Assembly: GCA_022843925.1 (NCBI GenBank) | Contig: JALHMS010000001.1 | Span: 144,294-208,293 of the forward strand | Direction: 5' to 3' | DNA from: Burkholderiales bacterium | GTDB lineage: Bacteria; Pseudomonadota; Gammaproteobacteria; Burkholderiales; Ga0077523 | Length of the DNA stretch: 64,000 nucleotides | Shown here: in pieces, positions 51,587-64,000 of the stretch | Numbering within the stretch: position 1 is the stretch's first letter | How the letters are laid out: the number at the start of each line of letters is the position of its first letter | Made by a program: the position numbers and the translations under genes | Notes under the pieces: model-generated | Told to the model about the DNA's origin: nothing | Databases searched by the model: none | What the model saw: only the letters and a program-made list of their open reading frames with translations

Positions 51587-53098
51587 ATGAACTGCGCCGA
51601 GCGCCTCGTCAGCCTGTTCGGTACCCAGGCGGAAGTCTCACGCCGCCTCAAGCTCGACCGGGCTGTGGTCAGCCACTGGGTGAAGTCCGGCTACATCCCC
51701 GCACGGTGGGCCATGGAAGTGGAAGCCGTGTCGGAAGGTCGGATCGAAGCCGTAGAAATACTGAACGAGGCCAATCGCCTCCGACCCGTGCGGGTGAAAT
51801 CGCGCGGGGAGGACGAAGGCGTGTTCGGTTCCGCCATAACAGGGAGCGACATCATGAATTCATTCGCGCCGGCCAAGCGCATCCATTCCTTCCACCCGCC
51901 GCAGCGCACGCTGATGGGCCCGGGTCCGACGGAGATCCACCCGCGCGTACTGACCACGATGAGCCAGCCGGCCATCGGGTACCTCGACCCGGTGTTCGTC
52001 GAGATGATGGAAGAGCTGAAGAGCCTCCTCCGCTACGTCTACCAGACGAAGAACGCGCTGACGTTCCCGGTCTCCGGCCCCGGTTCGGTGGGCATGGAGT
52101 ACTGCTTCGTGAACATGGTCTCGCCCGGCGACAAGGTCGTGGTCTGCATCAACGGCGTGTTCGGCGGCCGGATGCTCGAGAACGTGATCCGCTGCGGCGG
52201 CGTGCCGGTCGTCATCGAACACGAATGGGGCACGCCCGTCGACCCGCAGCGCCTGGAGGACACCCTCAAGGCGAATCCGGACACGAAGGTTGTCGCGTTC
52301 GTGCACGCCGAGACGTCCACCGGTTGTCTGTCGGACGCCAGGACGCTCGTGGACGTGGCCCATCGCTACAACGCCCTCACGATCGTGGACGCGGTGACGT
52401 CGCTCGGCGGCGTCCCGGTGCTGGTCGATGAATGGGGCGTGGATGCCATCTACTCCGGCAGCCAGAAATGCCTCTCCTGCACGCCCGGTCTGTCGCCGGT
52501 GTCGTTCAACGAGCGCGTCGTCGAGCACGTGAAGGCCCGCAAGGACAAGATCCACAGCTGGTTCATGGACATGAACCTGCTGCTCGGCTACTGGGGCGCC
52601 ACGAACCGCACGTATCACCACACCGCACCGACGAACTCGCTGTTCGCACTCCACGAAGCGCTGCTGCTGATCCGCGAGGAGACGCTCGAGGACTGCTTCG
52701 CGCGCCACCGCCGCCATCACCTGGCGCTGAAGACCGGCCTCGAGGCGATGGGTCTGCACTTCCTCGTTAAGGAGGAGTACCAGATCCCGCAGATGAACGC
52801 GGTGCGCATCCCCGAGGCGATCCAGCCGAAGGAGGCCGAGGTCCGCAAGCGTCTGTTGAACGAGTTCAACCTCGAGATCGGCGCCGGCTTGGGCCCGCTC
52901 GCCGGCAAGATCTGGCGCTTCGGAACGATGGGCTACTCGTGCCGGCCGGAGAACGTGATGCTGTGTCTTTCGGCCCTGGGTTCCGTCATGTCGGACCTCG
53001 GCATGCCGGTCCACGTCGGCGACGCCGAAGCGGCAGCGCACGACGCCTACGCCCAGATGCACAAGCACGCAGCCCAACAGAAGAAGCGCGTCGCCTGA
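51587..53098 (+). CDS. P22-Cro/YdaS-like HTH domain fused in frame to a class V (AGXT-type) aminotransferase; possible internal start at 51854
   Basis: Residues 1-60, LFGTQAEVSRRLKLDRAVVSHWVKSGYIPARWAMEVE, resemble P22 Cro (FGTQ.AVAKALGIS.AAVSQW). No stop codon occurs before the aminotransferase core (LMGPGPTEIHPRVL, SGSQKCLSCTPGLSP with the PLP Lys). An AGGGAG lies 7 nt before the ATG at 51854. Confidence 0.8.
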   Translation: MNCAERLVSLFGTQAEVSRRLKLDRAVVSHWVKSGYIPARWAMEVEAVSEGRIEAVEILNEANRLRPVRVKSRGEDEGVFGSAITGSDIMNSFAPAKRIHSFHPPQRTLMGPGPTEIHPRVLTTMSQPAIGYLDPVFVEMMEELKSLLRYVYQTKNALTFPVSGPGSVGMEYCFVNMVSPGDKVVVCINGVFGGRMLENVIRCGGVPVVIEHEWGTPVDPQRLEDTLKANPDTKVVAFVHAETSTGCLSDARTLVDVAHRYNALTIVDAVTSLGGVPVLVDEWGVDAIYSGSQKCLSCTPGLSPVSFNERVVEHVKARKDKIHSWFMDMNLLLGYWGATNRTYHHTAPTNSLFALHEALLLIREETLEDCFARHRRHHLALKTGLEAMGLHFLVKEEYQIPQMNAVRIPEAIQPKEAEVRKRLLNEFNLEIGAGLGPLAGKIWRFGTMGYSCRPENVMLCLSALGSVMSDLGMPVHVGDAEAAAHDAYAQMHKHAAQQKKRVA

Positions 53099-53142
53099 GC
53101 GAACTGCGCACCCGGTAATTCATCCCGGAAGTCATGGAGAGC

Positions 53143-53172
53143 GGCGGACCCTGGTCCGCCGTTTTTCGTTTC
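53143..53172 (+). terminator. Rho-independent terminator after the aminotransferase gene
   Basis: GGCGGAC-CCTGG-GTCCGCC followed by GTTTTTCGTTT. Confidence 0.65.
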
Positions 53173-53280
53173 GTGGTCGATGCGCCGGACGGATGACGCG
53201 GCACCGTTTTTGCGAAGTGTGAGACAGCGCGTACGCCATGGTACTTTCCGGCCGCGCGCCCTTCAGGAGCAGATGCCCCC

Positions 53281-54093
53281 ATGAATTCCCTCGGTCGATG
53301 GACGCTCGTCGCGCTCGCTTTTGGTCTTGCGACCACGACGACGCGCGCCGAAGTGGTGCTGTATGCGAACGACTTCGAGACCGCGATCGGCCCGGAGTGG
53401 TCGAGCACCTCGACCTACGCCTGGGGGCTGCAGCAGACGCCGGCCGACGACACCGGCGGCGGATTCCTCGGCTACTTCGGCGGCGACAACGCGACGACGC
53501 TCACGCTGACGGACCTCCCGTCGGGCCTCGCCAGCCTCACGCTGGAGTTCGATGCCTATCTGATGTGGTCGTGGGACGGCGAGGACACCCGGCCCGTCGA
53601 CGGCGTTCCCCGCGGCCCTGATCGCTTCGGATTCCGGAGCGGCACGGGCAACGGTCTCGTCGCCGGAAATTCCTGGACCTTCAGCCACGGCAGCGCGGCC
53701 ACCGGCCTGCAGTCGTTCTGCGGCGACACGCTGGCGCCGTGCGCGCCGACCACCGGGGCCCTGTCCCGATACGCGCTCGGCTACCGTTTCGAGATCGTGC
53801 CGACCGAGGAGGACCTCGACACCACGGGCGCCGCCCCCATGGACTCCGTCTACCGGTTCGCATGGACGGCCACCCACGACGGTGGCACCACGGCGTCTTT
53901 CACGTTCTTCAGTGCGGGACTGCAGGTGCGACCGGATCTCGAGTTCCCCTATCTCGACGAGGCCTGGGGCCTCGACAACGTCCGGGTCATCCACACGCCC
54001 GTCCCGGAGCCCGCGGAGTCGGGGCTGCTGGCACTCGGTCTTGCGATGCTCGCCGTCGTCCACCGCCGCGGCAGACGTCGCGACGCCTGCTGA
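53281..54093 (+). CDS. PEP-CTERM sorting-domain secreted protein
   Basis: Signal peptide MNSLGRWTLVALAFGLATTTTRA. C-terminal VPEPAESGLLALGLAMLAVVHRRGRRR gives the PEP motif, a TM helix and an Arg cluster. Confidence 0.85.
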   Translation: MNSLGRWTLVALAFGLATTTTRAEVVLYANDFETAIGPEWSSTSTYAWGLQQTPADDTGGGFLGYFGGDNATTLTLTDLPSGLASLTLEFDAYLMWSWDGEDTRPVDGVPRGPDRFGFRSGTGNGLVAGNSWTFSHGSAATGLQSFCGDTLAPCAPTTGALSRYALGYRFEIVPTEEDLDTTGAAPMDSVYRFAWTATHDGGTTASFTFFSAGLQVRPDLEFPYLDEAWGLDNVRVIHTPVPEPAESGLLALGLAMLAVVHRRGRRRDAC

Positions 54094-54161
54094 GCTTCGC
54101 CCACGGCGATGTCCGGGATGCGCGGAAGGGCCGTCCGGGACGATGAAGAATCGATGACGGC

Positions 54162-56396
54162 ATGCCGCACGCCCTGAAGATCGACCCGCTGACGGACCTC
54201 CCCCCGCCGCCCGCTGCCCCCACGCCCGAAACGCTCTCCCGACCACGCCAGGCACTCGTCGCCGTCTACGTGATCGTCGCGCTCTGGTATCTGCTCTGGC
54301 GTCCCGAGACTTTCAACGCCGCAGCGCCGTGGTTCTCGCGTCTCGTCTACGCGGGCGAGGTGTTCGGCTTCGTCACGGCCGTGCTGCACATCCACATGGT
54401 GTGGCGGCTGTCGGTACGCGAAGCGCCCGCGGCGCCGGCGGGCCTAGTGGTCGATGTGTACGTCACCACCCGGGACGAGCCGGTCGAGATGCTGCGCCGG
54501 ACGCTGGTCGCCGCCACCCGCATGTCCTATCCGCACGTGACCTGGCTGCTCGACGACGGCAACCGGCCCGCCATGCGCGAGCTCGCCGGCGAGCTGGGCG
54601 TGCAGTACCTCGCCCGCGCGCGGCATCGGCACGCAAAGGCAGGCAACCTGAATCACGCGCTGTCCCGCACCCTCGGCGACTACATCGCCGTCTTCGATGC
54701 GGACCACGCCCCGGCGCGGGACTTCCTGACGCGGACGCTCGGCTACTTCCAGGACGCGCGGGTCGCGTTCGTATCGACGCCGCAGGACTTCTACAACCTC
54801 GACTCGTACCAGCATCGCAACGATGCCCAGACCCGCCTCGTGTGGAACGAGCAGTCGCTGTTCTTCCGCGTGATCCAGCGCGGCAAGGACGTCACGAACA
54901 GCGCGTTCTTCTGCGGCACCTGCGGCATCCTCCGCCGCAAGGCCCTGGACGACATCGGCGGCTTCGCCGTCGACACGGTCACGGAGGACCTCGACACCTC
55001 GGTCCGCATCCACCGCAAGGGATGGCGGTCGGTGTACCACGCCGAGCCGCTCGCGTTCGGCGTCGCGGCTCCCGACTTCGTGCCGTTCGTGCGGCAGCGG
55101 GTGCGCTGGGGCCAGGGTGCCATGCAGGTGCTGAGACGGCACGGCCTGCTGTTGTTCGCCAGCGGGCTGACCCTCCCCCAGCGCCTCAACTACTTCGCCA
55201 GCACCATCATGTATTTCGACGGCTGGCAGAAGGCCCTCTTCTACCTCGCGCCGGCGATCGTCCTGATGACCGGTGCGATGCCGATCAGCCAGCTCTCGTG
55301 GGAGTTCGTGCTGCGGTTCGTCCCGTACTACCTGCTCACGTTCTGGGTGTTCGAGGAGGTGGGCCGCGGCTACGGGCGCGCGCTCGATGTCGAGCGATAC
55401 AACATGGCGCGCTACGGCGCCTTCGTGTGGTCGACCCTCGGCCTGCTGCGCCGACGCCTCGCCTTCCGCGTCACGCGGAAGCATCGGAGTCCGGACGGGG
55501 GCCGCGCAGGCCGTCGCTTCCTGTGGCCGCAGTGGGCCGTCCTCGGCATGAATGCCGCGGCGATTCCCGTGGGCCTTCTTCTCCAGGCACTCGGCGTCAT
55601 CGCCCTGCCCACGGCGGCACTGATCGCGAACATCTTCTGGGCGCTCGTGAACGTGGTCCTCGCGCGTGCCGTCGTCGGCTTCACCCGTCGCGTTTCCGGA
55701 TTCCACCGACGCGAGTATCGGTTCCGCATTCCGCTCCCCGCGCTGCTGTCGGGAGACTCCCGTCGTCCCCACGCGGGGATCCTCGACGACGTGTCGGCGG
55801 AAGGCTTCAAGTACTACGGGCGGTTCCCCGCGGACACGGCGCCCGGCGACACGGTCGCGGGGGAGATCCTGCTGCCGAGCGGACGGATGCCCTTCCGTGC
55901 CACGGTCTGCGCATGCTTCCCGGGACCGAGGGACGGCGACGTGCGCGCGCTCGGGTGCCGGTTCGACTGGAACACGCCTTCCGAGGCGGACGCCCTGATC
56001 GCCTTCCTCTACGGGTCCGACCTGCAATGGAAGTTGAACCGGCTGAGCGACCGCTCGCGCACCCCGCTCGAGCGGTTCCTGCGATGGGTGCGCCGACCGG
56101 CTCGGCCGGCGCCGGAAGCCCCGGACGCACCGTGGGCCGCCGCGGTGGTCCGCAGCGCGGACACGCCGGATCGGGGGATGCACCCGGGCATCGTCTCGGT
56201 CCCATCGGCGTCGGGTGACGAACGCACGCTCGTCGTGTTCCGGCGGATGGGGGCGCGGGAGCGCCTGGAGATCCTCGTCACGACACGGGCGGGGACATCG
56301 ATGCTGCGGTCCGGCGCCATGCTGTTCGACGCCATGCTCGCGAGCGGCACGCCGCTCTACCTCTACCGGTTGCCTCCTGCAGGGGAATTCCGATGA
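54162..56396 (+). CDS. Cellulose-synthase-like processive family-2 glycosyltransferase with a C-terminal PilZ domain
   Basis: DVYVTTRDEP, LLDDGNR, HAKAGNLN, FDADH, FFCGTCG, TEDLDTS (TED), QRVRWGQG (Q-x-x-R-W), multiple TM helices. The PilZ motifs are RREYRFR (RxxxR) and LDDVSAEG (D-x-S-x-x-G). Confidence 0.85.
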   Translation: MPHALKIDPLTDLPPPPAAPTPETLSRPRQALVAVYVIVALWYLLWRPETFNAAAPWFSRLVYAGEVFGFVTAVLHIHMVWRLSVREAPAAPAGLVVDVYVTTRDEPVEMLRRTLVAATRMSYPHVTWLLDDGNRPAMRELAGELGVQYLARARHRHAKAGNLNHALSRTLGDYIAVFDADHAPARDFLTRTLGYFQDARVAFVSTPQDFYNLDSYQHRNDAQTRLVWNEQSLFFRVIQRGKDVTNSAFFCGTCGILRRKALDDIGGFAVDTVTEDLDTSVRIHRKGWRSVYHAEPLAFGVAAPDFVPFVRQRVRWGQGAMQVLRRHGLLLFASGLTLPQRLNYFASTIMYFDGWQKALFYLAPAIVLMTGAMPISQLSWEFVLRFVPYYLLTFWVFEEVGRGYGRALDVERYNMARYGAFVWSTLGLLRRRLAFRVTRKHRSPDGGRAGRRFLWPQWAVLGMNAAAIPVGLLLQALGVIALPTAALIANIFWALVNVVLARAVVGFTRRVSGFHRREYRFRIPLPALLSGDSRRPHAGILDDVSAEGFKYYGRFPADTAPGDTVAGEILLPSGRMPFRATVCACFPGPRDGDVRALGCRFDWNTPSEADALIAFLYGSDLQWKLNRLSDRSRTPLERFLRWVRRPARPAPEAPDAPWAAAVVRSADTPDRGMHPGIVSVPSASGDERTLVVFRRMGARERLEILVTTRAGTSMLRSGAMLFDAMLASGTPLYLYRLPPAGEFR

Positions 56397-57112
56397 AGCT
56401 GCCGTACACCGGTCTCCTCGCCCTGGCCGGCCTCATGCTGGCGGGTACGACCCTGGCGCGGGACATCACCTTGCTGACCGGTGCGGAGGTCCGGCGGAAC
56501 GATGAGTACTACGCTTACCTCGGGGCGCTCGTCCCGCTGCGCAGTTCGGACCGGCTGGGTGCCGGGTGGGTGCAGCGGTACTGGGTCGACGGCCTCCACT
56601 ACGGGTTCGACGTGTCGGACCCCGCGCGCTTCGCCACAGACCCCCAGAACATCCGGGCCCGGGCCCTTGGTCTGGAAGCGGCCCTCGGCTACCACCTCAG
56701 GGACGACCGCGGCGGGGTGGCGGCGTACCTCGGGTTCCGGCATCAGCAGTCGACGCTGTCGCCCGACGTCCCCGACAGCCGGGTGCGCGGGTCGCAGTGG
56801 TGGCCGCGGGCGCAGGTGGAGATGGATGCACGGCTCGCGCCGTCGGTCCACGCCTACGGCATCGTCGCCTACACCTTCGGGCTGGACGGCTACTGGTCGA
56901 GGCTGCGCGTGATGCACGGCCTCGGCGGCGTCGAGGTGGGCCCCGAGGCGATCCTGCAGGGTGACCGTGACTACCGCGCCCGGAAGATCGGGCTGGTGAC
57001 GACCGGCCTGCCGCTGGGCGGGAGCCTCACGATGGGCCTGCGCGCCGGATATCACTTCCAGGCCAACGCGAACTCGCCGTATGTGGGCGTCGAACTCGCG
57101 CTTGGCCTCTGA
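56393..57112 (+). CDS. Putative outer-membrane beta-barrel protein, BcsS-like
   Basis: Signal peptide MKLPYTGLLALAGLMLAGTTLA. It has alternating beta-strand-like segments, with YYAYLGALVPL..LGAGWVQRYWVD and ALGYHL. ATGA overlap with the synthase gene. The BcsS assignment comes from remembered family features only. Confidence 0.5.
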   Translation: MKLPYTGLLALAGLMLAGTTLARDITLLTGAEVRRNDEYYAYLGALVPLRSSDRLGAGWVQRYWVDGLHYGFDVSDPARFATDPQNIRARALGLEAALGYHLRDDRGGVAAYLGFRHQQSTLSPDVPDSRVRGSQWWPRAQVEMDARLAPSVHAYGIVAYTFGLDGYWSRLRVMHGLGGVEVGPEAILQGDRDYRARKIGLVTTGLPLGGSLTMGLRAGYHFQANANSPYVGVELALGL

Positions 57113-57180
57113 CGCAGCGCGGTTCCGGCACCGCCACCCCGGTATCGGGCTCGGGATGGCGGAGGCAGGGGTCGCTTCCC

Positions 57181-58074
57181 TCAGTCCGGCTTCGCCGTCC
57201 TGAGTGCCTTCACCGCGGCAGCGAACCGGGCCTCGTTACGGGGCTGGGCCTCGAAGCGGGTGAGGTTCTCACCCATCGCCTCTCCCAGCCGGTCGAGGCG
57301 CTGACCGGGGTTGGGGTGGGTCTTCGTGAGGAGCGCGAGGTACGGATCGTCCGCCTTGATCTTGCCGAGGGTCTGCAGCGCGCCTGCCAGACCGTAGGGG
57401 TCGTAGCCGGCGCGGGTCGCGAGCACCACGCCCACGCGATCGGCCTCGTACTCGTCGTCCTTGTCGAGGCCCCGGGAATAGAGCTCCTTGGTGGGTCCGA
57501 CGAGGGCGTCGACCAGCGCACCACCGCCCTTGCCGGCCGTCGCCGCGCTGGCCCCGGCGCCGAGCAGATTCGTCCAGGCGCCCTTCTTCATCGCGTTGAG
57601 GTGGTGCTTGCGCACGACGTGCCCCACCTCATGGCCGAGCACGCCGGCGAGTTCCGCCTCGTTCTCGAGAAGCCGCAGCATGCCGCGCGTCACGATGATG
57701 ATCCCGCCGGGCGCCGCGAAGGCATTCACGTGGTCGCTGTCATTGACGCCGAACCGCCAGGGCAGGTCAGCCCGCTCGGACTGACTCGCAACCCACGCAC
57801 CGACCTCGTTCACGTAGCGTTGCAGCGCCGGGTCGTCGTGCAACGGACGCGCGCCTAGGAGCGTCTCGGCCACGCCGCGACCCATCTCGATCTCCTTCGG
57901 CTGATCCACCGAGCCGAAGGCGCCCTTCAGGTTGGCAGTGAGGCCGTCGACGCCGCCGGAGCTTTTCACGAAGGCATCGATCTGCTTCGGATTGCAGGCC
58001 GCCAGGAGACCGATGGAAGCGGTGGCGGCCAGCACCCAGGCGACGATGCGTCGGCGATTCGGATGGCGGATCAT
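57181..58074 (-). CDS. M48-family zinc metalloprotease lipoprotein
   Basis: Lipobox LLAAC, and HEVGHVV (HExxH) with a downstream EYEADR. Confidence 0.85.
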   Translation of the reverse strand: MIRHPNRRRIVAWVLAATASIGLLAACNPKQIDAFVKSSGGVDGLTANLKGAFGSVDQPKEIEMGRGVAETLLGARPLHDDPALQRYVNEVGAWVASQSERADLPWRFGVNDSDHVNAFAAPGGIIIVTRGMLRLLENEAELAGVLGHEVGHVVRKHHLNAMKKGAWTNLLGAGASAATAGKGGGALVDALVGPTKELYSRGLDKDDEYEADRVGVVLATRAGYDPYGLAGALQTLGKIKADDPYLALLTKTHPNPGQRLDRLGEAMGENLTRFEAQPRNEARFAAAVKALRTAKPD

Positions 58075-61290: not shown

Positions 61291-62451
61291 CTACGCGGAC
61301 TTGGCCTCGTGTTCGGGGGCGTCGGCAAAGCGCTCGGCGATTTCGAGGAACCTGCCCCGGATCTCGAAGAAGGCATCGGCCAATCCCGGGTCGAAATGCG
61401 TGCCCCGCTCGCGCATGATCATGTGCACCGCATCGTCGTGGGAGTACGCCGGCTTGTAGACCCGCCGGGAGATCAGGGCGTCGTAGACATCGGCGATGGC
61501 CATGATCCGCGCGGACAGCGGGATCGCGTCCCCCACGAGGCCGTCCGGGTAGCCGGTACCGTCCCAGCGCTCGTGATGGCTCGTCGCGATCTCCCGGGCG
61601 TGGCGTAGGAACGAATCGCCGGCGACCACGAGATCCGCCTCCGCCTGCAGGATGGCATCGCGCCCGAGCACGGTGTGCTGCTTCATCACTTCCCATTCCT
61701 CCCGGTCGAGCTTGCCGGGCTTCAGCAGTACGGCGTCCGGAATGGCCACCTTGCCGACATCGTGCAACGGCGCGGATTTGAAGAGGAGATCGATCGTCTC
61801 GGCGGTGAGTTCGCTACGGTAGGGTTCGCGATCGCGAACCTGCTCGGCGAGCGCACGCACGTAGTGCTGGGTCCGCCGGATGTGGTTGCCGGTCTCGTAG
61901 TCGCGCGCTTCGGCGAGCGAGCAGAACGCGCTGATCGTGGCGTCCTGCGCCGCGATCAACTGCTGCTTCCGACGGACCAGCTCCGCCGCCTGTTCGAGGA
62001 TGTGGCGCGTGCGCTCGGATACCAGTCGCTCGAGGTCCTCGTTGCGGGTACGAAGCAGCCGCGCGCTCTGACTGAGCCGCAGATGATTCCGGACCCGCGC
62101 GAAGACGACGGCCGGCGAGAACGGCTTGTGGATGAAGTCCTCGGCCCCGAGCGACAGGCCGCGCTCTTCGTCGACCGCACTGGAGAGCGTCGTGAGGAAG
62201 ATGACCGGGATGTCACGAGTGCCCGGGTCCTGCTTGAGCGCACGACACACTTCGAACCCGTCCAGGCCGGGCATCATCACGTCGAGAAGAATCAGGTCGG
62301 CGGCGCCGCCGTCGCCCAGATAAGCGAGCGCGGCGTGTCCCCCGTCGAGGGAGTGCACGACGTGGCTCTCGCCGAGGAGGTCTTCGAGGATGAGCAGGTT
62401 GTCCGGCTGATCGTCGACGATGAGGATGTGGGCGCGATCGGGTTCCGTCAC
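61291..62451 (-). CDS. Two-component response regulator with an HD-GYP domain (RpfG-like c-di-GMP phosphodiesterase)
   Basis: REC domain (ILIVDDQPDN, DLILLDVMMPGLDG, HKP). HD-GYP domain (LHDVGKVAIPD, HHERWDGTGYPDGL). Confidence 0.9.
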   Translation of the reverse strand: MTEPDRAHILIVDDQPDNLLILEDLLGESHVVHSLDGGHAALAYLGDGGAADLILLDVMMPGLDGFEVCRALKQDPGTRDIPVIFLTTLSSAVDEERGLSLGAEDFIHKPFSPAVVFARVRNHLRLSQSARLLRTRNEDLERLVSERTRHILEQAAELVRRKQQLIAAQDATISAFCSLAEARDYETGNHIRRTQHYVRALAEQVRDREPYRSELTAETIDLLFKSAPLHDVGKVAIPDAVLLKPGKLDREEWEVMKQHTVLGRDAILQAEADLVVAGDSFLRHAREIATSHHERWDGTGYPDGLVGDAIPLSARIMAIADVYDALISRRVYKPAYSHDDAVHMIMRERGTHFDPGLADAFFEIRGRFLEIAERFADAPEHEAKSA

Positions 62452-64000
62452 GGGACGCCCTCCGAGAGCACGGTCAGGGTTTCGTCGAGCACCTGGGCCA
62501 GCCGCTCGGCCAGATTGGCACTCTCCGGTCCGCCGTCGCGCGCCGTCGCCTCGGTGCGATCCGCGAGGGTCTGGAGCGGCCGCGCCATGAGATTGCCGCC
62601 CATGCCCTTCAGGCTGTGGGCCACGAACGCGATGTCGTCGAGGTCGGCGCCACGGGCGGCAACCCTGAGCCTGTCGGCGGTGTTCCGGTGGGTGCGGAGG
62701 ACTGTCACGACCAGCTTATCGACGAATTCGCGCCGCCCCTTGAACCGATTCAACAGCGCGGGCCAGTCGACCAGAATCGATGGGACCCCGGGGGGATTCA
62801 CCGGGGCCTGAGGCGCCGCCGCCACCTGCGTCGACGACCCCGGTGGCGCGGCGTCGTTGATTCCCTGACGGTCGAAGACGCCGGGGAGATGGCGACGCAC
62901 GGCACGCACGAGCCGGTCTAGGTCCAGCGGCTTCGGCAGATGCTCCACCATGCCCGCCGCGATGCAGCGGTCGCGTTCCTCCGCCATCGCGTGGGCCGTG
63001 AGACCGATCACCGGCAGATCCGGCGACAGCGCCCTGACCCGTCGCGCCACTTCATAGCCGTCCATCTCGGGCATCTGGATGTCGGTGAGCACCAGATCGT
63101 AGGCGCCGGGTCCGTCGGCCTCGAGCCGTTCCACCGCCAGTCTTCCGTTCTCGGCCTGGACGAGAAGGGCACCCTCCTGCGCCAGCAGGGTGTCGAGCAC
63201 GAGCCTGTTGACCTCGTTGTCCTCCGCGCTGAGCACCCGGAGACCCTTCAAGCGCGGCGCCCCCTGCGCATCGGACGCCTGCCGATCCCGCGGCGGGGGT
63301 ACCAGGACATGCCGCAGGCGCAGCGGACGCTCGATGAACGTTGCGCGGGCATCGTGCGGAGCGCGGGGCACCGAGGCCCCGGGGTAGCAGGCCACCAGGA
63401 GTCTACCCGTGGCGGGAATGTCGCCGCGCGCTTCGTACCGCTCGAAATCGAGGATGGTGAGATCCGCCGGCCCGGGTGAGGCATCGGTCACCTCCACCTC
63501 GATGTCGAGCCCCTCGAGCGCCTGGGCAAGCGACGCCGCCTCGGCGGCGCCCAGACCCACGAGCGCTGCGCGCGCGGGCAATCGCATGGGCGCCACCGGG
63601 GGCACCCGACCGGTGATCGGCAGGGTGACCTCGAAGGTGGTGCCGCTCCCGAGGGCGCTCGTGACGTCGATCCGGCCGCCCATCATGTCGACCAGCCCGT
63701 GGCAGATCGCCAGGCCGAGGCCGGTGCCACCGAAGCGACGGGTGGTGGATCCGTCGGCCTGCTCGAACGGCTGGAAGAGGCGCGCGAGGTGGTCCGGGGC
63801 CATGCCGATCCCGGTGTCCTCGACGGTGATCCGCAACGATCCGTCATCCGCTGCGAAGCCAAGGATCACGCCGCCGCGTTCCGTGAATTTCACGGCGTTC
63901 GCGAGCAGATTCACGAGCACCTGGACCATGCGCTGGGGATCGCCGTCGAGGACCTCCGGCAGCCCGGGTGGCTCCGACACGCGCATCGCCAGACCCTTGG
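62448..64000 (-). CDS. Hybrid sensor histidine kinase / response regulator with a C-terminal Hpt domain (N-terminus outside window)
   Basis: HATPase_c (NLLANAVKFT, DTGIGM, GGTGLGLAI), REC (DLVLTDIQMPEMDG, LPKP), Hpt (HSLKGMGGNL). The stop overlaps the response regulator start by 4 nt. Confidence 0.9.
   Translation of the reverse strand, partial: KGLAMRVSEPPGLPEVLDGDPQRMVQVLVNLLANAVKFTERGGVILGFAADDGSLRITVEDTGIGMAPDHLARLFQPFEQADGSTTRRFGGTGLGLAICHGLVDMMGGRIDVTSALGSGTTFEVTLPITGRVPPVAPMRLPARAALVGLGAAEAASLAQALEGLDIEVEVTDASPGPADLTILDFERYEARGDIPATGRLLVACYPGASVPRAPHDARATFIERPLRLRHVLVPPPRDRQASDAQGAPRLKGLRVLSAEDNEVNRLVLDTLLAQEGALLVQAENGRLAVERLEADGPGAYDLVLTDIQMPEMDGYEVARRVRALSPDLPVIGLTAHAMAEERDRCIAAGMVEHLPKPLDLDRLVRAVRRHLPGVFDRQGINDAAPPGSSTQVAAAPQAPVNPPGVPSILVDWPALLNRFKGRREFVDKLVVTVLRTHRNTADRLRVAARGADLDDIAFVAHSLKGMGGNLMARPLQTLADRTEATARDGGPESANLAERLAQVLDETLTVLSEGVP

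Follow-up and report, generated by a model that had tools for sequence, protein, structure and literature searches.

A BcsA-like synthase, BcsS and a PEP-CTERM protein in a candidate BcsB- and BcsC-independent exopolysaccharide cassette of a Burkholderiales bacterium

Three co-directional genes fill positions 53281 to 57112 of "the window", a 64,000-nucleotide stretch of a Burkholderiales bacterium genome (assembly GCA_022843925.1, contig JALHMS010000001.1). In order, they encode a secreted protein with a PEP-CTERM sorting tail, a BcsA-like processive synthase of glycosyltransferase family 2 (GT2) that carries a PilZ domain, and the small protein BcsS (coordinates are collected in Table 1). 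A sequence-only reading of this DNA had described the same three open reading frames (ORFs), and all were found again where it had placed them. These include the PEP-CTERM gene upstream of the synthase and the ATGA through which the bcsS start overlaps the synthase stop (56393-56396). The genome comprises 5.57 Mb in 64 contigs and is 99.15% complete; the window lies on contig C1.

The synthase matches Pfam GT2 families (E 2e-20), a segment of Cellulose_synt, and PilZ (PF07238, E 2.3e-07, residues 516-617). The processive-synthase motifs listed in the sequence-only reading (DDG, DADH, FFCGT, TED and QRVRW) are all present, as D131-D132-G133, D179-A-D181-H, F249-FCGT, T274-E-D and Q312-RVRW, and are accompanied by a gating loop, F435-RVTRK (residues 435-440). 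The PilZ domain it had proposed is likewise borne out, with the RxxxR and DxSxxG signatures intact (R516-REY-R520 and D543-VS-AEG548). Every catalytic, gating-loop and PilZ motif aligns with its counterpart in solved BcsA (9b8v, 5ej1, 4p00), and through the intact PilZ domain and gating loop the enzyme is presumably responsive to cyclic di-GMP (c-di-GMP).

The departures from BcsA lie at the two ends of the protein. Alignment to Escherichia coli BcsA (6e-70) begins at residue 202 of that protein, and alignment to Cereibacter/Rhodobacter BcsA (1e-62) at residue 54, so that the first ~53 residues of BcsA have no equivalent; hydropathy places only two transmembrane helices (about residues 30-77) ahead of the GT domain (about 95-330). 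It is the N-terminal helix of BcsA that coils with BcsB (PMC10374906). The synthase also reaches just about half of the TIGR03030 cut-off for cellulose synthases, and this score, together with the missing BcsB partner and contacting helix, would set it outside BcsA on two counts. Past PilZ, the stretch thought earlier to comprise about 150 extra residues is in fact 127 residues long. The first ~10 of these still align to BcsA, and ~95 (645-740) make up a length-conserved, family-specific domain that is nearly gap-free in 114 homologues, with about 40% column identity, and is predicted to be cytoplasmic because of its position after PilZ. It has no Pfam match at E<=10. Two candidate identities were rejected: a search for a PDB relative with the family profile gave only a spurious repeat-protein match, and comparison with the family's own PilZ, as a possible second copy of that domain, gave an hhalign probability of 3%.

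The general view is that cellulose-type synthases of Gram-negative bacteria depend on BcsB for activity and on BcsC, a large protein combining tetratricopeptide repeats (TPR) with a barrel, for export. Whole-genome profile searches for BcsB (PF03170), the BcsC barrel (PF05420) and the glycoside hydrolase family 8 enzyme BcsZ (PF01270), in which control genomes returned the expected matches, found none of the three in the source genome; the absence of bcsB, bcsC and bcsZ that had been noted for the window thus holds genome-wide. The cassette supplies the genome's only CelA-like (TIGR03030) match and its only BcsS match. BcsB is also missing from 31 of the 32 other genomes that carry this synthase family, the sole positive being Paraburkholderia madseniana (10 Mb), where it lies on a different contig from the synthase. 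An independent set of 400 genomes, sampled evenly across the class, was searched for BcsS. Matches occurred in six, the source genome included (five above the family cut-off), and BcsB was absent from all five of the others, one of which has a weak BcsS match. Overall, BcsB was present in one of 38 genomes tested. The sequence-only proposal of a stripped-down, BcsB-less synthase under PilZ control is supported by these searches, by the intact PilZ motifs, and by the barrel modelled for the third protein of the cassette.

That protein, BcsS, matches PF17036 (CBP_BcsS) with E 3.4e-25 and 89.4 bits, against a gathering cut-off of 24. A signal peptide (residues 1-22, ...TLA/RD) is followed by a barrel (26-238), and the AlphaFold2 (AF2) model, built with 17 homologues, shows 12 long antiparallel strands after the signal helix, with a predicted local distance difference test score (pLDDT) of 88 and a predicted template modelling score (pTM) of 0.80. 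Its best PDB matches in Foldseek, namely OmpG, OMPLA, KdgM, FapF, autotransporter beta-domains and FadL, are all outer-membrane barrels, so that the small BcsS-like beta-barrel suspected earlier from sequence is now also predicted by structure modelling. The strands alternate hydrophobic residues with Arg, Glu, Gln, His, Gly, Tyr and Trp on the inner face, the pattern expected of a lipid-facing girdle around a polar lumen. The protein ends in ...YVGVELALGL, and most homologues end in F. Thus the model has the features of an outer-membrane beta-barrel: a closed antiparallel barrel, a hydrophobic girdle and a C-terminal beta-signal. There are no OMPLA-like catalytic residues among the invariant positions. 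KdgM (TMt 0.58) and FapF (TMq up to 0.60) are similar to BcsS in size and strand number, and no sequence similarity to either is detectable. KdgM imports oligogalacturonates and is not a polymer exporter; FapF exports amyloid subunits. BcsS probably exports the polymer.

The pairing of synthase and BcsS extends well beyond this genome. Database relatives of the synthase number in the thousands. Of the best 120 clusters, almost all have lengths of about 720-790 amino acids (aa); they are 48-93% identical to it, with no source name among them more specific than "cellulose synthase (UDP-forming)" or "glycosyltransferase", and more than 100 clusters formed at 90% identity exceed 48% identity to the synthase. 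A scan of species-representative genomes gave 47 synthase loci, whose labels include Rhodocyclaceae, Burkholderiales, Gammaproteobacteria (Chromatiaceae, Steroidobacteraceae), Geoanaerobacter, Geomonas, Nitrospina and an Aquificaceae metagenome-assembled genome (MAG). Neighbourhood counts refer to the 41 loci with usable flanks, and most of the genomes compared are MAGs. A small secreted beta-rich protein directly follows the synthase in 41 of 41. In 29 it is BcsS, as detected with a hidden Markov model of BcsS homologues, and in the remaining 12 (Rhizobacter, Azohydromonas, Caldimonas and relatives) the slot is occupied by a second family, whose members comprise about 205-235 aa, begin with a signal peptide and end in ...YNGF. 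The second family has no Pfam match; its C-terminal motif is also that of BcsS (hhalign probability 43%, E 2.5e-4), and the two are likely homologous. Three of the four strong BcsS matches in the class sample also lie just after a synthase homologue.

Further evidence comes from three database proteins of about 970 aa (P0047, P0070 and P0090) that are true in-frame synthase-BcsS fusions. At the junction the signal peptide of BcsS is retained together with an AxA cleavage site, so that each fusion would contain an internal signal sequence and is probably cleaved. This layout is consistent with a synthase that ends in the cytoplasm and a barrel that is exported after it, and speaks for the two working as a pair. 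A further apparent fusion, in locus L035, proved to be an open alternative frame (similar long ORFs occur in L027 and L040). All-against-all clustering of ORFs within 5 kb of the 41 loci, a comparison made noisy by high-GC antisense ORFs, revealed no other conserved neighbour and returned only lineage-specific housekeeping genes (branched-chain aminotransferase-like, ABC transporter ATPases, a dehydrogenase). The synthase-BcsS pairing is family-wide and not special to this cassette, and, judged by sequence, the synthase-barrel pair is widespread.

The first gene of the cassette encodes a protein with a signal peptide (residues 1-23, ...TRA/EV), a jelly-roll domain (about 24-239) and a sorting tail (240-270) consisting of VPEP, a hydrophobic helix and RRGRRR: VPEPAESGLLALGLAMLAVVHRRGRRRDAC. 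Assignment of the tail to PEP-CTERM is borderline by score (16.8 bits against TIGR02595, just over the cut-off of 16; 15.7 against PF07589, below 20.7) and clear by motif. For the N-terminal domain there is no Pfam match at E<=10, and NCBIfam matched the tail alone. The AF2 model (33 homologues, pLDDT 83, pTM 0.78) is a beta-sandwich followed by a C-terminal helix. Its Foldseek matches are galactose-binding-type jelly rolls: Eph receptor ligand-binding domains, the carbohydrate-binding modules (CBMs) CBM22 and CBM27, a porphyran-binding CBM, a gingipain K3 adhesin domain and a MAM-domain protease zymogen. The family has an invariant acidic cluster (D99, D114, E227, D232, N233) and several conserved aromatics, which might form a calcium site and a platform for sugar binding. 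A full-library profile search with the jelly-roll domain (53350-53997) found 6051 representative clusters, 1344 of them at E<=1e-30, and the domain also occurs as tandem repeats in proteins of 1000-4800 aa. With so many clusters and no Pfam family, it appears to be a large, un-annotated surface-protein domain, one subfamily of which has been recruited to the synthase operon.

Anchoring or decoration of the PEP-CTERM protein had been suggested as a possibility; a polymer-binding lectin role fits the predicted fold better. The sequence-only reading had also seen no exosortase gene. This is correct for the window and incorrect for the genome, which has two exosortases elsewhere (PF09721; 253 bits at C21:13933-14703 and 218 bits at C20:69319-70065). 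When all ORFs were scanned for the motif, about 99 ended in a PEP-CTERM tail, C1:103280-105097 and C1:128956-130419 among them. This amounts to about one every 56 kb, a very large repertoire of exosortase substrates.

By the family profile, 11 of the 41 loci, drawn from two phyla, have a PEP-CTERM homologue beside the synthase. There are three further adjacent homologues, in L026, L043 and L061, the last with two tandem copies upstream of the synthase. The gene precedes the synthase in Rhodocyclaceae-like betaproteobacteria; in Burkholderiaceae and Geoanaerobacter it comes after bcsS and may be on either strand. The flanking genes are unrelated between these groups. In the Rhodocyclaceae-like group the PEP-CTERM protein is 52-61% identical and the synthase about 62-64%; in the Burkholderiaceae/Geoanaerobacter group the figures are about 30-35% and 49-51%, so that by these identities the divergence of the one tracks that of the other. 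Among the synthase-adjacent homologues examined, the PEP-CTERM tail is preserved, in some cases in the form VPAP or IPLP; the exception is L040, where the C-terminus is disrupted. An exosortase match was found in nine of ten genomes with the PEP-CTERM partner (one of them a fragment), versus 12 of 22 without it. The PEP-CTERM protein is a conserved accessory and not a core part of the system, and for the family as a whole it is no substitute for BcsB.

The three genes occupy a defined insertion. Nucleotide homology to other species of the genus stops at the aminotransferase stop codon (53098) and restarts at 57185; because it breaks off and resumes at these points, the 4086 nucleotides between them are identified as an insertion. 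The flanks are housekeeping genes, with the M48 peptidase gene converging on bcsS from downstream. In several congeners no more than 75-300 nucleotides separate the convergent aminotransferase and M48 genes, and the same empty arrangement is found in one genome of another family of the order. The insertion is common only to one near-identical relative (G446, whose locus matches L005 from a public MAG), in which the synthase is 94% identical. Synthase homologues occur in 10 of 25 species genomes of the genus, the others being 62-69% identical and at different sites; three congeners (G463, G447 and G435) have both a copy 64-66% identical and a second paralogue at 43-47% identity (loci L093 and L094). 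Such a patchy distribution at different sites suggests that the cassette is gained, lost or moved as a unit. A terminator-like hairpin stands between the aminotransferase stop and the PEP-CTERM gene, so the three genes probably form their own transcription unit. A sigma-70 promoter scan of the region found no promoter, and the intergenic stretch 3' of bcsS has no significant RNA structure (z = -0.75).

Table 1. Features of the inserted cassette, by position in the window, and the second-family partner protein of related loci
Feature	Position	Strand	Basis or remark
Whole inserted cassette	53099..57184	+	Between the stop codons of the convergent class-V aminotransferase and M48 peptidase genes
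Terminator-like hairpin with U-run	53134..53172	+	-26.2 kcal/mol; z = -4.5 versus shuffles
PEP-CTERM protein, 270 aa	53281..54093	+	TIGR02595, AF2, Foldseek, synthase adjacency
BcsA-like processive GT2 synthase with PilZ, 744 aa	54162..56396	+	Pfam and NCBIfam matches, BcsA alignment
C-terminal family-specific domain of the synthase (residues 645-740), predicted cytoplasmic	56094..56381	+	Conservation in 114 homologues
BcsS, 239 aa, predicted outer-membrane beta-barrel	56393..57112	+	PF17036, AF2, Foldseek
Second-family protein in the BcsS slot	L025:10207-10908		Same slot in L015, L016, L019, L020, L023, L024, L028, L030, L031, L032, L046, L047

Several observations concern the surroundings of the cassette. 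The empty site of one congener (L071:3040-3230) contains several copies of a short AAACACCTTGCGAAGGGGATTC-like repeat between the aminotransferase and M48 genes. The class-V aminotransferase itself (51587-53098, forward strand) is extended at its N-terminus by ~90 aa that give a weak YdaS/helix-turn-helix-like match (E 7e-06, below the cut-off); with homologues from the order's other families the alignment starts only at residue 86-98, and the extension may be confined to the genus and its nearest relatives. Some 4-7 kb downstream of the cassette, beyond the M48 peptidase, SH3-domain, metF and ahcY genes, a REC-HD-GYP response regulator, probably a c-di-GMP phosphodiesterase, adjoins a hybrid histidine kinase (HATPase-REC-Hpt) at 61291-63998 on the reverse strand. 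No such pair was seen beside the module in related loci.

How the system may work is proposed from sequence, predicted structures and gene neighbourhood. Binding of c-di-GMP to PilZ would free the gating loop, as in BcsA, allowing the GT2 domain to polymerise a UDP-sugar, most likely UDP-glucose, into a putative beta-glucan, and the nascent chain would thread through the synthase's own membrane channel. The synthase appears to lack the N-terminal part of BcsA that includes the BcsB-contacting helix, and with that helix missing it would need no BcsB. BcsS, translationally coupled to the synthase and exported by Sec, would fold as a 12-stranded outer-membrane barrel with a polar lumen, by which a single glucan chain may leave the cell. 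The PEP-CTERM protein would also be exported by Sec, and be processed and sorted to the surface by one of the genome's two exosortases. There, as a lectin, it would probably bind the polymer, keep it cell-associated and promote aggregation or floc formation, a retention step borrowed from work on PEP-CTERM proteins of Zoogloea (PMC9012009). This reading as a whole, that a self-contained, horizontally acquired exopolysaccharide operon encodes a BcsB- and BcsC-independent variant of synthase-dependent secretion, is given a probability of about 0.6. A bolder form, in which the synthase and BcsS are a complete two-protein machine spanning the envelope, joined in some lineages to the exosortase pathway via a dedicated PEP-CTERM lectin, is more tentative, with the odds somewhat against it.

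The cassette can be compared with several known systems. Canonical cellulose secretion of types I-III (BcsA-BcsB with BcsC or BcsK, and BcsZ) has the same architecture of a GT2 with D,D,D,QxxRW, FFCG(S/T) and TED, an FxVTxK gating loop and a C-terminal PilZ, and an outer-membrane beta-barrel encoded in the same operon, as here. It differs in having BcsB, BcsZ and BcsC, all three missing from the source genome; BcsC has TPRs and a 16-stranded barrel, whereas BcsS has 12 strands in 239 aa and no TPR, and the cassette synthase has the additional ~95-aa C-terminal domain. More broadly, the cassette shares with synthase-dependent exopolysaccharide systems of the cellulose, alginate, poly-N-acetylglucosamine and Pel type a GT2 with a c-di-GMP receptor and an outer-membrane barrel, but lacks their TPR scaffold; its operon also has no polymer-modifying or polymer-cleaving enzyme. 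The closest published likeness for the synthase is by description: RiGT2 of Romboutsia ilealis is a PilZ-bearing, BcsA-like GT2 without the BcsB-contacting helix or a bcsB neighbour, and is probably BcsB-independent (PMC10374906). Its host is Gram-positive and its product has no outer-membrane step, unlike that of the cassette. For type I bcs operons, BcsS has been counted among the optional components (PMC8892547), whereas here it accompanies BcsB-less synthases.

For the PEP-CTERM protein, the relevant comparison is with PepA of Zoogloea resiniphila. In Zoogloea, PEP-CTERM proteins are required for the exopolysaccharide to stay attached to the cells; if they are not expressed, it continues to be produced and escapes into the broth (PMC9012009). 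Both systems have a signal peptide and a PEP-CTERM signal, exosortases and many PEP-CTERM genes, and the source organism is likewise of the activated-sludge betaproteobacterial type. In Zoogloea there is a large exopolysaccharide cluster with asparagine-synthetase genes, whereas here the PEP-CTERM family lies inside a BcsA-like operon, and its N-terminal domain is an un-annotated jelly roll. No paper on a BcsB-less synthase-BcsS pair or on its link to PEP-CTERM was found in a literature coverage that was incomplete and made without web search.

A number of points weigh against the proposal as a whole. The identity of the product is one: the synthase scores 374.8 bits against TIGR03030 (UDP-forming cellulose synthase), below the equivalog cut-off of 699.1, and 282 bits against NF008558, where the cut-off is 992. 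The TIGR03030 score does not establish cellulose as the product, and the product need not be cellulose. RiGT2 makes a mixed-linkage (1,3;1,4)-beta-glucan (PMC10374906), which urges further caution in this respect. Passage of the chain across the periplasm is another, since the operon and its conserved neighbours yielded no TPR, BcsB-like or BcsK-like scaffold for it; a non-homologous periplasmic partner may be encoded elsewhere in the genome. As to BcsS, Foldseek template modelling (TM) scores are modest, at most about 0.6, and a plug in the lumen, if present, may matter for the predicted pore. The barrels of BcsC, PgaA and AlgE have 16-18 strands and are larger, and to our knowledge no polysaccharide exporter with only 12 strands has been described. 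The literature searched gives no function or fold for BcsS, naming it only in lists of accessory bcs genes, and contained no experiment on any member of the family. Lastly, about 73% of loci lack the PEP-CTERM partner, its exosortase correlation is only suggestive because the genomes are incomplete MAGs, the PEP-CTERM ORFs of the genome are as numerous as noted above, and more distant homologues of the jelly-roll domain lie elsewhere in other genomes, two of them in unrelated contexts.

In a rival reading, BcsS would not be the export pore: it would serve instead as an outer-membrane anchor or receptor for the polymer, or the glucan would stay in the periplasm, and any export would use a partner encoded elsewhere. 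The small strand number, the lack of a periplasmic bridge, and the fact that several 12-stranded Foldseek relatives are enzymes or plugged barrels (OMPLA, autotransporter beta-domains) speak for such a role. Yet other 12-stranded matches, KdgM and FapF, are true channels, the inner face of BcsS is predicted to be polar, and its invariant positions offer nothing resembling the OMPLA active site. The small secreted beta-rich protein that follows the synthase at every locus and the natural synthase-BcsS fusions also count against this explanation, as do the lack of any other conserved neighbour and of a BcsC-type barrel in the genome. On balance it is unlikely, and the proposed pore function of BcsS is preferred.

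The PEP-CTERM protein invites two further alternatives, both of them slightly less probable still. In one, it would replace BcsB: held in the inner membrane by its C-terminal helix and spared exosortase processing, it would contact the synthase and guide the chain with its jelly roll. Its topology of signal peptide, periplasmic beta-sandwich and single C-terminal transmembrane helix is indeed BcsB-like, BcsB being described as periplasmic and anchored by a single transmembrane helix (PMC9012009), and the gene shares the operon with the synthase and diverges in step with it. However, 30 of 41 loci lack the protein, which the synthase family can therefore do without, and no BcsB chain is among the 50 Foldseek matches listed for its model. 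The VPEP/helix/Arg sorting signal kept in adjacent homologues, the exosortase matches in nine of ten partner genomes and the repetition of the domain in 1000-4800-aa proteins, typical of surface adhesins, likewise favour a protein sorted to the surface. In the other alternative, the PEP-CTERM gene would be functionally unlinked to the synthase and adjacent to it only through inherited synteny. The roughly 99 such ORFs in the genome, the lack of a partner at most synthase loci and the distant homologues in unrelated contexts speak for it, but adjacency recurs in Rhodocyclaceae-like betaproteobacteria, Burkholderiaceae and Geoanaerobacter with varied order and strand and wholly different flanks. 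The tandem PEP-CTERM copies upstream of the synthase in L061, and the arrival of gene and synthase in one 4.1-kb insertion, are also hard to reconcile with mere synteny. The reading of the PEP-CTERM protein as a surface lectin for the polymer is therefore retained.

The link to a PEP-CTERM lectin, the second partner family, the synthase-BcsS fusions and the empty-site evidence are new here. A large synthase family dispenses with BcsB and BcsC, and pairs with a barrel-type protein of about 210-240 aa in every locus examined. The picture of BcsS is corrected accordingly: in the genomes examined it is a partner of BcsB-less synthases, and not an add-on to canonical bcs operons. If the two-protein machine proposed above is real, it would be the smallest known, operating without BcsB, a TPR scaffold or a glucanase, and if the pair is sufficient it would offer a minimal system for structural work on trans-envelope glycan export and for the engineering of polymer secretion. 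Similarly, the long-unexplained association of PEP-CTERM proteins with exopolysaccharide would gain its first defined polymer-protein pair. The operon-encoded PEP-CTERM lectin permits a concrete test of the role of exosortase substrates in exopolysaccharide matrices and sludge flocs, for which three genes and an exosortase would suffice.

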